A stretch of DNA of 25,786 nt from a virus. Numbering within the stretch: position 1 is the first letter of the stretch; each line of letters begins with the position of its first letter. Position numbers and translations under genes: made by a program. This document shows positions 10,101-13,100 of this stretch, piece after piece. The notes under the pieces are model-generated. The model ran no database searches. It was not told the DNA's origin and worked only from the letters and a program-made list of their open reading frames with translations. Location: the UHGV virus genome UHGV-1799016; one strand, given 5' to 3'.

Positions 10101-13100
10101 AGAGAAAGACAAAGCTGGCAACAAGCTAACAACACGGCAACGAGTAACCAAAGCGAAAGAAAGAGGTGGAAGAGAGTGGATAGATACCCTTCGAACAACA
10201 ACTGATGCTCATTATTTGCGTTTGGCAACAGATGTTGGCTATATATCTGCCCCTGAGGCGCAGGCTATTATACGGAATCCGCACACAAAGGATGACGTTT
10301 TGAATCTGCTGCTCCGCAAATTAGAGGCTAATTATTTCGACCTTTATCAGACTGATGTGGCGGAGGATATGGCTCGTCGCAATCTTTCAGCAGAAGATTT
10401 GCAGCGTCTTTACGACATTGCGATGAAGGACCCTCGTGCCTATCGTTTCTATAACGCTTTGGATGCAATCGCGCAAAACAAAAACACCCCTGAGTCTGTA
10501 TTGGATGAGCTTTATAAGCGTGCGATTAAAGAAAGACGTCGTTTGGATAAAGACGGAAATTACGTAGATCTTGGATTAAGATTGGCTCAAAACCCTAGCA
10601 CGAGCGAATCTCACCTCCGTACTTTAGCTTTAACCCATGGCGAAGATGTGGCAAAGAATCCGAGTGCGCCTGTTGATTTGTTACGCGTCTTTGCTACAGA
10701 AAAAAAGTCCCCTTACGGTAGCTATTATGCTTTGCGTGCGGCTGTTGCGCAAAACCCGTCTACTCCAGCCGACCTTCTATTGGAGATACTGAGAACGTCT
10801 GATAGAGAGGAAGCTGCGGTCGAATATGCGGTGAAACATCCCAGCCTTAAGGGGGCTGACTTGGAGCGTGCGGCAGAACTTGCGTCGAATCCTTCTATCT
10901 TTAACAACCCCAATATTACCGATGAGTTACTCGAGAAGTGGGCAAGTGTCAAGGGCGAAACTAAGGCAGTTAAGACTTTCGCTTCCTTAGCCCAGATTGA
11001 ACTAGATAAACGCAGAACATCAAAGGCGGAGGAAGGAAAAGCACACCTTACAAAATCTCAACGAGAGTTGCTCGAGCTTGTAAGAAATCCGAACGCAACA
11101 GCGGAGGAGCTGCAGCGCGCATACGAAGGAGAATACTACGACAAGGATGATGCGAAACAAGTAAAGAAGGCTAAGGAGTTAGCTAAGGTGCGCGAAGAGG
11201 TTGTTCGCGCTGTTGCTGCGCACCCTAATGCGCCTTCCACTATTTTGTATGAAATTTACTATTCTGAAGGCGAGGAAGACCCAGAGTTGCAGCGTATTAT
11301 TGAGAGTCGCAAAGATGATACTATTGGTGAAGACATCCTTGGCTCGAAACCGAATGGTAGAATTCGCGAACAACGAGTTGGAAAAAGTGATATAGTTGTT
11401 GGGCAAACTGTTTTTTTCAGAGGTACGCCATGGAAGGTAGAATCTGTAAGTCCTAATGGGAAACTGACAATCACGACAGAGATTAGTGGACATGTGCTGC
11501 GCCATGAAAATATACTCCCGAGATGGGTGCGTTTGGAGCCAGTAGAGGAAAAACAATCGGACAAAGAACTCAGCCATGCGAATAATACAGTGTCAGAAGA
11601 ACAAGGCGACACTAAATCCGCAAGGGAGAGTGACAGTGAAGCTTTGAACTCTATAGAGTCGCGAGATAAAGATTATGCCGATGCTGTTGCGCGTGGTGAT
11701 ATTGAAACAGCTGAGAGAATGCTTGCAGAGGAAGCGGAGCGCAAAGGGTATTCTCTGGATAGTCCTTATCAAGGCGAAAGTGCATTTAACGGTAAAGCTC
11801 CGTCTGATTCGGGGTATTACGAAAATGCGGAAGAGCGTAAAAAAGCTTATGACGAGGGTGATTATGAAGGTGCTTGGACACTCGCGGATGAATTAGTCCA
11901 CGGTGTAGATGTGGGGTCTTTGGTTGATTTCCGCCTTAGCGATAATGAGTTGAGGCGTGCTAATGATATGACACGCGAATCTATATTAAATTTGCGTGAG
12001 GCGCTAAGGAAGGCTCGTTCTGGCGAGAAGAATATTACTATCAAAATGTACCGCAGTGTTCCCCCTGGAGTAAAGGAGCGTGAGTTTCGTAACGGAGACT
12101 GGATTACCCCCAGTCGTTTGTATGCGCTGGATAACGCTGAAATACACGAGGGGTATGAAGGTGAGAATCAAGAAGGGTGGAATGGTGGCTATCGCATCAT
12201 AGAACAGGAAGTTCCCATTGAGGATGTTTGGTGGGATGGTAATGACGTCAACGAGTGGGGCTATGATAATGGAGAGAGAGAGGCTTATCGTAATACGGAA
12301 AACAATAGAAAGACTTTTTCTGTTACTTACGATAGTGAAGGTAATCTTATTCCGCTGTCTAAGCGATTTGATGAAACAAACTCAGATGCTCGATATTCTA
12401 AGGGGGGAGAGCAGCGTGTATCTAATGAAAACGCTTTGGACGGTGTATCTCCAGAGCAGATAGAACTGCGAGATGGTCTTGTTGATATTATGCGCGATGC
12501 TGGCATGGACGTGAGCGTGAGCGATGCTGAGGGGCAACGTGTGTTAGACTTAGCAAGGGGCGCAACGATAGAAGCTGATGCGGTGAGAGAAGCGCGAGAG
12601 ATAGAGCGTGTTAATGCGGTGTTTAATGATGAGCTAGATGCTTTCTCGGAAGATAATGCTAATCGCATAATATTTAGCCTTGGGCGTCCCTCTGAAGTGT
12701 TACGTGCTGCTGGAGTGCCGGATATGCCAATGAAGCTTTATGGCAGTAAGCTCCTTAAGAAAATCAAGAAGCACGGCTTTGATAAGGTAGCCTTGCGCGA
12801 TTTGCCACGTGCCGTGGCAAACCCTATTGCTGTGTTCAACAATCGTAAACAAGAGGGCAATCGCGCCATCCTTACAGAATTGCATACTGAGCAAGGGAAT
12901 GTGCTTGTGGCGATTGACCTTGGCAAAGGTGCTGACGTGGACTTTAATGTTGTGAGTAGTGTGTTTGGTAAGGGGAAAAATGGCGTGGTCGAATGGATAA
13001 ACAAGAGACAATTCACGTATGTAGACGAAGAGAAAGCTCTTAATTATCTGCACTTAGCCGCACCAATCGCGGCAGCCTCAGACAATCAAAAGCTTTCTCT

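Follow-up and report, generated by a model that had tools for sequence, protein, structure and literature searches.

A leucine-rich repeat variant cassette in a giant polyvalent protein of a Prevotellaceae prophage and its exchange for an ADP-ribosyltransferase domain

Leucine-rich repeat variant (LRV) proteins (PF01816/PF25591; 1LRV, Azotobacter vinelandii) are bacterial repeat proteins whose units follow the consensus (V/A)A-x-NP-x-TP-xx-LL-x-L and recur at a regular spacing of 24-26 aa. The 1LRV-type fold is a right-handed superhelix of alternating alpha and 3-10 helices. In this work we analyzed the virus genome UHGV-1799016 (25,786 nucleotides, hereafter the window) and revealed an LRV-type repeat cassette in the middle of a giant protein of 4441 aa, encoded by an uninterrupted open reading frame (ORF) of 4441 codons at 4150..17475 on the plus strand. 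The source of the window is a podophage-like prophage of a Prevotellaceae (Alloprevotella-like) bacterium, and in a closely related phage the same slot of the giant protein holds an ADP-ribosyltransferase (ART) domain.

The cassette resembles the LRV proteins in its unit consensus, in passing the cutoff of the Pfam model LRV_2 and in the position of the NPxTP turn between two predicted helices. At the same time it stays below the PF01816 cutoff, its units are spaced by 22-60 aa instead of the regular 24-26, three of the ten units lack the NP/TP residues, and the array is interrupted by a 26-residue helix and a beta-hairpin. Moreover, the cassette is not accompanied by an Fe-S domain, and it is embedded in a 4441-aa phage protein, whereas the LRV proteins are stand-alone bacterial repeat proteins.

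The protein that carries the cassette belongs to another described group. Iyer, Burroughs, Anand, de Souza and Aravind (2017; PMC5512222) proposed that polyvalent proteins are packaged, injected together with the DNA and processed to functional units by embedded peptidases; the text of that paper names neither LRV nor HEAT nor leucine-rich modules. The giant protein is similar to the polyvalent proteins as a giant multi-effector polypeptide with ART-PolyVal, MuF_C/PBECR, DdrB-ParB and LPD38 domains, in its virion-gene context and in its mosaic evolution by domain accretion and exchange (PMC5512222). It differs from them in the addition of a non-catalytic cassette of predicted solenoid type and in that Pfam detected no MPTase domain, only a HEYTH motif being present.

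Phage-encoded LRV solenoids have also been deposited as stand-alone proteins of uncultured Caudovirales phages (A0A6J7WYX0, A0A6J5NQI3) and of Moorella phage MTATph1 (WPA89648.1), which shows that phages deploy the LRV fold on its own. Unlike the cassette, these proteins are encoded by separate genes and are 200-550 aa long, and the MTATph1 gene lies in a block of nucleotide-metabolism and replication genes, not adjoining virion genes. Since databases already include phage LRV proteins and the accretion of many domains by polyvalent proteins is known, what is new here is limited to the combination of domains and to the evidence for slot exchange.

The repeat array and its predicted structure

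The cassette, measured from junction to junction, occupies 10135..11379 (aa 1996-2410) on the plus strand, on which its units and the adjoining parts of the giant ORF also lie, and runs from TRQRV through ten units to IREQRV. The repeat array proper consists of ten helix-loop-helix units at aa 2034-2385 (nt ~10249 to ~11304), anchored at aa 2043, 2077, 2110, 2148, 2170, 2202, 2230, 2253, 2313 and 2358. An earlier note on this DNA, made from the sequence alone, had described about seven NP-x-TP units at 10471-11260. Seven motif units are indeed located there (aa 2108-2370), and the peptides quoted for them are exact; the array is nevertheless longer, starting ~220 nt further 5', with two additional units upstream and one degenerate unit among the seven.

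The array is real and not a product of chance. Within aa 2110-2358 there are seven copies of the motif [NH][PK]x[STAI][PSAT], and the remainder of the 4441-aa protein has only two. In shuffles of the 340-aa region it was met 0.2 times on average and three times at most, and whole-protein shuffles gave no more than five occurrences in any 340-aa window. The strict form NP[SN][STA][PST] was found four times, against a shuffle maximum of one. Because the broader motif was defined post hoc from the sequence, two motif-independent tests were run. In leave-one-out tests, in which a profile hidden Markov model (HMM) built from nine units was scored on the tenth and compared with 366 background windows taken from other parts of the giant protein, eight of the ten units outscored every background window, while units 2 and 8 (anchors at aa 2077 and 2253) were marginal. 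A second HMM was trained only on 171 canonical 26-aa units from unrelated proteins; it gave the cassette 45.0 bits as compared with at most 4.1 bits for shuffled cassettes, and its hits in the giant protein were confined to aa 2106-2249. The consensus of canonical LRV units extracted in our analysis is EVREAVAENPNTPVDILEKLAKDEDS. The outcome that would have spoken against the earlier proposal, an absence of significant repetition, was thus not observed.

The units differ considerably in their conservation. Unit 1 (loop NPHTK; 10249..10329, aa 2034-2060; helices 27-35 and 41-53 in model numbering) obtained a held-out score of 12.7 against a best background score of 8.2. Unit 2 has the degenerate loop RNLSA (10348..10425, aa 2067-2092; model helices 60-68 and 74-85) and reached 7.5, a marginal score equalled or exceeded by two background windows; both these units fall outside the interval given by the earlier note. 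They are followed by unit 3 (NKNTP; 10441..10533, aa 2098-2128; 14.5 vs 5.5), unit 4 (NPSTS; 10570..10656, aa 2141-2169; 23.5 vs 9.4) and unit 5 (NPSAP; 10633..10698, aa 2162-2183; 22.1 vs 9.2), the last of which gave a domain of 13.8 bits with the canonical-LRV HMM and shares its first helix with unit 4, in line with the 22-aa spacing between them. Unit 6 (NPSTP; 10723..10794, aa 2192-2215) is the most canonical: it scored 20.9 bits with the canonical-LRV HMM, and the best stretch for both Pfam models, LRV_2 and LRV, is located here at aa 2193-2218. Unit 7 (degenerate loop HPSLK; 10810..10884, aa 2221-2245; model helices 214-221 and 228-238) scored 8.5 vs 8.0. Unit 8 (NPNIT, preceded by a vestigial SNPSIF; 10891..10944, aa 2248-2265) scored 8.0, which is marginal, as three background windows scored at least as high. 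Units 9 (NPNAT; 11053..11127, aa 2302-2326; 12.6 vs 8.1) and 10 (HPNAP; 11161..11265, aa 2338-2372; 6.4 vs 5.3) complete the array.

Seven units therefore carry [NH][PK]x[STAI][PSAT] followed by a hydrophobic helix, as expected from the LRV unit consensus VAxNPxTPxxxLxxL, and three are degenerate (NPHTK at aa 2043, RNLSA at aa 2077, HPSLK at aa 2230). The register is broken by a hairpin at aa 2130-2139 and, between units 8 and 9, by a long inserted helix of 26 residues (10963..11040, aa 2272-2297; model helix 265-290), where the predicted local distance difference test score (pLDDT) drops to 58-80. The distances between successive anchors are 34, 33, 38, 22, 32, 28, 23, 60 and 45 aa. For comparison, in 146 bona fide LRV hits the NPxTP spacing has a sharp mode of 26 aa (173 of 452 distances), accompanied by multiples of this value at 52 and 78. 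Hence the cassette does not show the regular period of ~24-26 residues, and the description of the units as clearly periodic could not be upheld. No direct or tandem repeat was found beneath the array at the DNA level, so that the repetition exists in the protein only and is old and diverged; on the same grounds a recent duplication was ruled out as its origin.

The model LRV_2 (PF25591) matches the cassette in three stretches covering aa 2028-2400 with 43.6 bits (E 2.8e-11), the gathering score being 27, and with 27.8 bits when the giant protein is scanned whole. The PF01816 search proposed in the earlier note ended just under its cutoff of 21.6, with 19.7 bits on the fragment and 11.4 on the whole protein, and the alignment covers unit 6 only (aa 2194-2212). 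A phmmer search against 1.84 billion representative proteins matched 560 proteins, including a single ortholog. All 58 best non-orthologous matches are LRV proteins that carry both PF01816 and PF25591, and 42 of them also match HEAT. Taken together with the LRV_2 result, this bears out the proposed LRV theme. No HEAT or ARM family gave a Pfam match to the cassette fragment at E <= 10 (PF02985 and PF13646 were tested), and the giant protein has no such match either. By the LRV_2 match the cassette belongs to the LRV branch of alpha-solenoid repeats; because it fails the PF01816 cutoff and lacks the regular period, we classify it as a diverged LRV-type array.

The same relationship was observed in a structural search of BFVD, where the top matches were stand-alone phage proteins annotated as 'Leucine rich repeat variant' (E 3e-6 to 3e-4, 13-24% identity). 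In contrast to a canonical LRV query, which had one match among 50,697 phage GenBank records (Moorella phage MTATph1), megablast and tblastn searches of these records with the region gave no match. A search of PDB sequences with the cassette returned two matches at chance level (E 0.2-0.3), an NCBIfam search gave no match, and a scan of the GTDB species-representative genomes with the cassette revealed no relative.

AlphaFold2 was run on aa 2008-2400 with an alignment of eight sequences. The resulting model has a mean pLDDT of 77.8 and a predicted TM-score (pTM) of 0.61, with blocks over aa ~2108-2257 at 84-95, and contains 24 helices and one short hairpin. Every NPxTP-type motif, the three degenerate copies included, is located in a loop between two model helices. 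The structure prediction suggested in the earlier note thus yielded a helical-repeat model and not a globular non-repeat one. At the level of this model the local helix-loop-helix repeat architecture is well supported, and the ~350 residues probably form a stack of irregular alpha-solenoid type. Against this global geometry stand the other four AlphaFold2 models, with a pLDDT of 63-69, and the Foldseek global TM-scores against PDB of only 0.1-0.33. The solenoids of ARM/HEAT type (the designed armadillo 6s9p, the PP2A A subunit 3c5w and the CpcE/F lyase 5n3u) differ from the modelled cassette in sequence (7-13% identity) and superpose poorly as a whole (rmsd up to >10 A, Foldseek TM 0.1-0.33). 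Judging from the model, the likeness to them is at the level of the fold class only.

In view of these results it is scarcely credible that no domain exists and that the motif recurs by compositional chance in a helical low-complexity stretch. Such an explanation would be in agreement with the irregular spacing, the two marginal units and the PF01816 score below cutoff, but it fails to account for motif counts unreached in shuffles, for the 45 bits of an independently trained HMM (at most 4.1 in shuffles), for LRV_2 exceeding its gathering score, for phmmer matches to bona fide LRV proteins up to E 5e-20 in a library of 1.84 billion proteins and for the confident folding of the model core.

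Cassette exchange and the junction motif

In the collections searched the cassette is confined to one lineage (L002/L003, P0001 and P0008; 95-96% identity). In the sister contig L006 (IMGVR_UViG_3300006251_000176) the segment 9936..11398 of the window has no counterpart: blastn homology ends at 9935 and resumes at 11399. The giant protein of L006 (4810 aa) is collinear with that of the window over aa 1-1976 and, past the slot, from aa 2399 onward, and the flanks of the slot are 81-95% identical to the window. The slot itself (L006:9106-9723) contains a second copy of ART-PolyVal (79 bits), a domain of ~200 aa. The same slot exchanges the LRV cassette for an ART effector between phages. Since an enzymatic effector can occupy the slot in L006, the LRV block can be regarded as a payload module and not as an obligatory spacer.

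The DNA of this ART copy (L006 9015-9742) is 96% identical to the ART module of the window (13181-13737), as compared with ~94% for the resident ART of L006. The closer similarity of the copy in the slot points to inter-allelic transfer of the cassette. The module that starts directly after the LRV cassette (SDIVVGQTVFF...RWVRLEP; 11386..11541, aa 2413-2464) is kept in alleles lacking the cassette; in P0009/L006 it is 89% identical and follows the ART copy directly.

The giant gene is heterogeneous along its length. When the window was compared with L002 module by module, dS amounted to 0.018 in the MuF_C segment, 0.06 in the LRV cassette and 0.5-0.63 in aa 801-1450 and in the C-terminal kilobase. 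This variation between modules, ~30-fold (0.02-0.63), indicates a recombination mosaic. The dN/dS of the cassette against L002 is 0.37, based on ~20 substitutions, and suggests that the cassette is under constraint. Diversifying selection is unsupported at this value, with two alleles available. No NPxTP units were found in the more distant giant relatives L007 and L008. The LRV Pfam domain was likewise found in none of 120 listed LPD38 relatives, which is a weak test as most of them are <=1850 aa or come from short contigs.

A short peptide motif stands at both ends of the cassette. The upstream boundary is RQRV within TRQRV (10135..10146, aa 1996-1999) and the downstream boundary is REQRV within IREQRV (11365..11379, aa 2406-2410). 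The pattern [EQR]QR[VIK], usually as [ILV]R[EQ]QR[VIK], occurs five times in the giant protein (aa 1996, 2407, 2754, 3004 and 3382), the remaining three copies being encoded at 12409-12420, 13156-13170 and 14290-14304. By chance 0.34 occurrences are expected, and five were not reached in 5000 shuffle trials. At every occurrence a linker precedes the motif and a module follows it. In L006 the motif is present on both sides of the inserted ART copy, which has the same flanks as the LRV cassette. The codons for R-E-Q-R vary from site to site while the peptide is retained, so that it is the peptide that is conserved and not a DNA microhomology; for this reason we disfavour the idea that the motif merely serves recombination as DNA microhomology.

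The motif is not restricted to the window. Among 120 LPD38 relatives it is enriched about six-fold (57 observed vs 9.4 expected), and in 53 of 90 relatives REQR[VI] or [FY]R[DE]GD lies at most 25 residues from the N-boundary of the conserved C-terminal module, with [FY]R[DE]GD taking the equivalent boundary in distant LPD38 relatives. Such recurrence of a short peptide is compatible with proteolytic processing, and we hypothesize from its distribution that the junction motif is a candidate processing site.

It should be mentioned that two orthologs show further variation. In P0008 (4768 aa) an extra module of ~250 aa, WHGTPHDFDHFDHSKMGTGEGNQTFGWG... (aa 3267-3527), is inserted 3' of the ART module. 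It starts directly after DIREQRV, that is, it is opened by the same junction motif, and the insertion point corresponds to aa ~3216 (nt ~13795) of the window. In L001 (GCA_015473145.1, BNJS01004286.1; 3745-17296) the orthologous giant gene was called as ~15 consecutive ORFs on the same strand, the LRV part being a separate product of 559 aa (P0001), and the locus is flanked by a UvrD helicase gene and not by UbiA. The split of the giant gene in L001 is probably due to frameshift errors or pseudogenisation.

The giant protein and its genomic surroundings

The giant protein is a multi-effector polyvalent protein of the phage type. Several effector or enzymatic domains are combined in one polypeptide, and the gene stands next to virion genes. 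Besides the LRV cassette, Pfam revealed MuF_C (aa 2870-2963, 61.1 bits), ART-PolyVal (aa 3070-3196, 72.6 bits), LPD38 (aa 4130-4326, 110 bits) and, below the threshold, ddrB-ParB (aa 1471-1596, 23.6 bits). The last ~1100 residues (aa 3328-4430) match phrog_14770 with 525 bits.

Upstream of the cassette lies an acidic low-complexity linker rich in Ser, Glu and Lys (9733..10134, aa 1862-1995), recognized by its composition. The residues PESQKGTN make up 74 of 100 positions at aa 1901-2000, and the net charge over aa 1880-2000 is -10. At nt 9920-10001 the DNA of this linker contains short tandem repeats that keep the reading frame (21-nt x 2.2 and 9-nt x 3.3). Between the cassette and MuF_C a Pfam scan of aa 2410-2756 gave no match; phrog_2579, 'ParB C-terminal domain', matches 12019-12282 (aa 2624-2711; E 5e-12). 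An HExxH-type motif, HEYTH, is located 3' of the ART module at 13855-13869 (aa 3236-3240) and has no Pfam peptidase match. Polyvalent proteins often carry a processing metallopeptidase at the equivalent place. Antisense ORFs within the LRV region have no family matches, and neither an Rfam family nor a tRNA was found in the window.

Two genes precede the giant gene. The first (2163-2675) encodes a protein of 170 aa that matches the T7_gp14 family of internal virion proteins with 27.2 bits at a cutoff of 27, and the second (2638-4137) encodes a protein of 499 aa without a match in Pfam, PHROGs or PDB. The order of the gp14-like gene, the 499-aa gene and the giant gene resembles an ejection-protein block of the gp14/gp15/gp16 type. 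Downstream of the giant gene there are matches to an SU10 adaptor-like family and to a tail PHROG. PDB sequence searches gave no match for the giant protein as a whole, nor for the gp14-like and 499-aa proteins. IMG/VR viral contigs of 29-59 kb carry the same locus.

The first 1876 bp of the window are 97% identical to a Prevotellaceae metagenome-assembled genome (CAJPLH010000012.1) and include a gene of the UbiA prenyltransferase family (896-1861, minus strand). The homology ends at 1876, and phage-like genes begin at 2163. Because the host homology stops here, the window appears to span a host-prophage junction, which probably adjoins UbiA. The genes at 20936-23485 have a GC content of 0.56-0.58 (window 21001-23000), as compared with ~0.47 elsewhere in the phage region.

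Possible function of the cassette

By analogy, the LRV cassette may be a non-catalytic binding payload that is delivered together with the phage DNA, a proposal to which we give about an even chance. The giant protein would be packaged in the capsid and would enter the cell along with the DNA, where it would be cut at the junction motif, or would at least act, as separate modules. The surface of the LRV repeat might then bind a host or phage macromolecule, for example to sequester or retarget a host factor, beside the enzymatic payloads, namely the ParB-like nuclease, MuF_C/PBECR and the ADP-ribosyltransferase. Packaging, injection and separate action of modules are assumed here by extension of what is established for polyvalent, MuF and Alt-type proteins. 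Binding of a macromolecule is suggested by the lack of a catalytic signature together with a fold like that of the ARM/HEAT/LRV scaffolds. In addition, the stand-alone LRV gene of MTATph1 sits among dUTPase, SSB and dNMP-kinase genes and not among structural genes, which suggests that phage LRV proteins can work in the cell independently of virion structure. The charge of the cassette (net -7 over 409 aa, pI 5.7) led us to reject the idea that it mimics DNA or acts against restriction.

Several results weigh against this proposal. Pfam revealed no peptidase domain in the giant protein, and we infer virion packaging from the gene context and a borderline T7_gp14 match. Literature searches yielded neither an experimentally defined ligand for any LRV-family protein nor anything relevant to LRV function in phages. 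The cassette itself showed neither a conserved surface patch nor a charge signature, and no binding partner was identified for it. Finally, in the collections searched the cassette exists in only two distinct sequences, which makes conservation mapping impossible and leaves the dN/dS estimate to ~20 substitutions.

The solenoid might instead be a structural or packaging module, that is, a spacer or scaffold in the capsid or ejection apparatus without a host target. It could keep the enzymatic modules at a given distance from one another, attach to the end of the packaged DNA or form part of an internal core or trans-envelope conduit together with the gp14-like and 499-aa proteins. The gene stands directly 3' of a T7_gp14-family gene, at the position of core proteins of the T7 gp15/gp16 type, the cassette is placed between long low-complexity linkers, and neither a catalytic nor a ligand signature was found in it. 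Alpha-helical repeat proteins also have a low contact order, so that unfolding and refolding on the way through a tail channel is plausible. We nevertheless consider such a role rather unlikely. The closely related phage L006 has no LRV cassette and carries in the slot an enzyme domain of ~200 aa that differs in size and fold, which argues against a fixed structural role, and the spacer function put forward in the earlier note as an alternative to target recognition is weakened by the same observation; target recognition itself would be an extrapolation. The absence of NPxTP units from the distant giant relatives L007 and L008 and of the LRV Pfam domain from all 120 listed LPD38 relatives, most of them truncated, as well as the occurrence of stand-alone phage LRV genes outside structural modules, also speak against it. 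It is improbable that the solenoid acts as an intramolecular adaptor, docking a neighbouring module or a processing protease and keeping the payloads inactive or ordered until release. The conserved short linear motifs flanking the cassette could be its ligands, but the modules just downstream are unchanged in the allele without the cassette and hence appear independent of it, and no evidence of co-variation or co-occurrence was obtained.

Returning to delivery as a binding payload, a more specific version can be put forward as a tentative and, taken as a whole, doubtful proposal based on the module boundaries. The middle of the giant protein might be a string of exchangeable payload cassettes delimited by a motif that is a processing site (...[ILV]R[EQ]QR[VIK] here and ...[FY]R[DE]GD in distant relatives). 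The LRV cassette would be freed in the infected cell as a solenoid of ~46 kDa that binds a host factor and neutralises it, a non-enzymatic anti-host or anti-defence effector swappable for an ADP-ribosyltransferase.

As an annotation the repeat is an ordinary to moderately interesting domain, and it is the cassette exchange and the junction motif that most deserve further work. The exchange is a clean natural case of a slot-for-slot replacement between LRV and ART modules in near-identical phages. The short motif at module boundaries could help to parse giant polyvalent proteins and in this respect may be more useful than the repeat. The catalogue of polyvalent-protein modules of phages, in which hardly anything but enzymes and LPD domains has been described so far, is extended by a non-catalytic module of predicted alpha-solenoid type. 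To our knowledge, no function has been established for LRV proteins in any organism. If the proposal is true, an LRV module delivered by a phage and directed at a host target would open a way to the function of this family.

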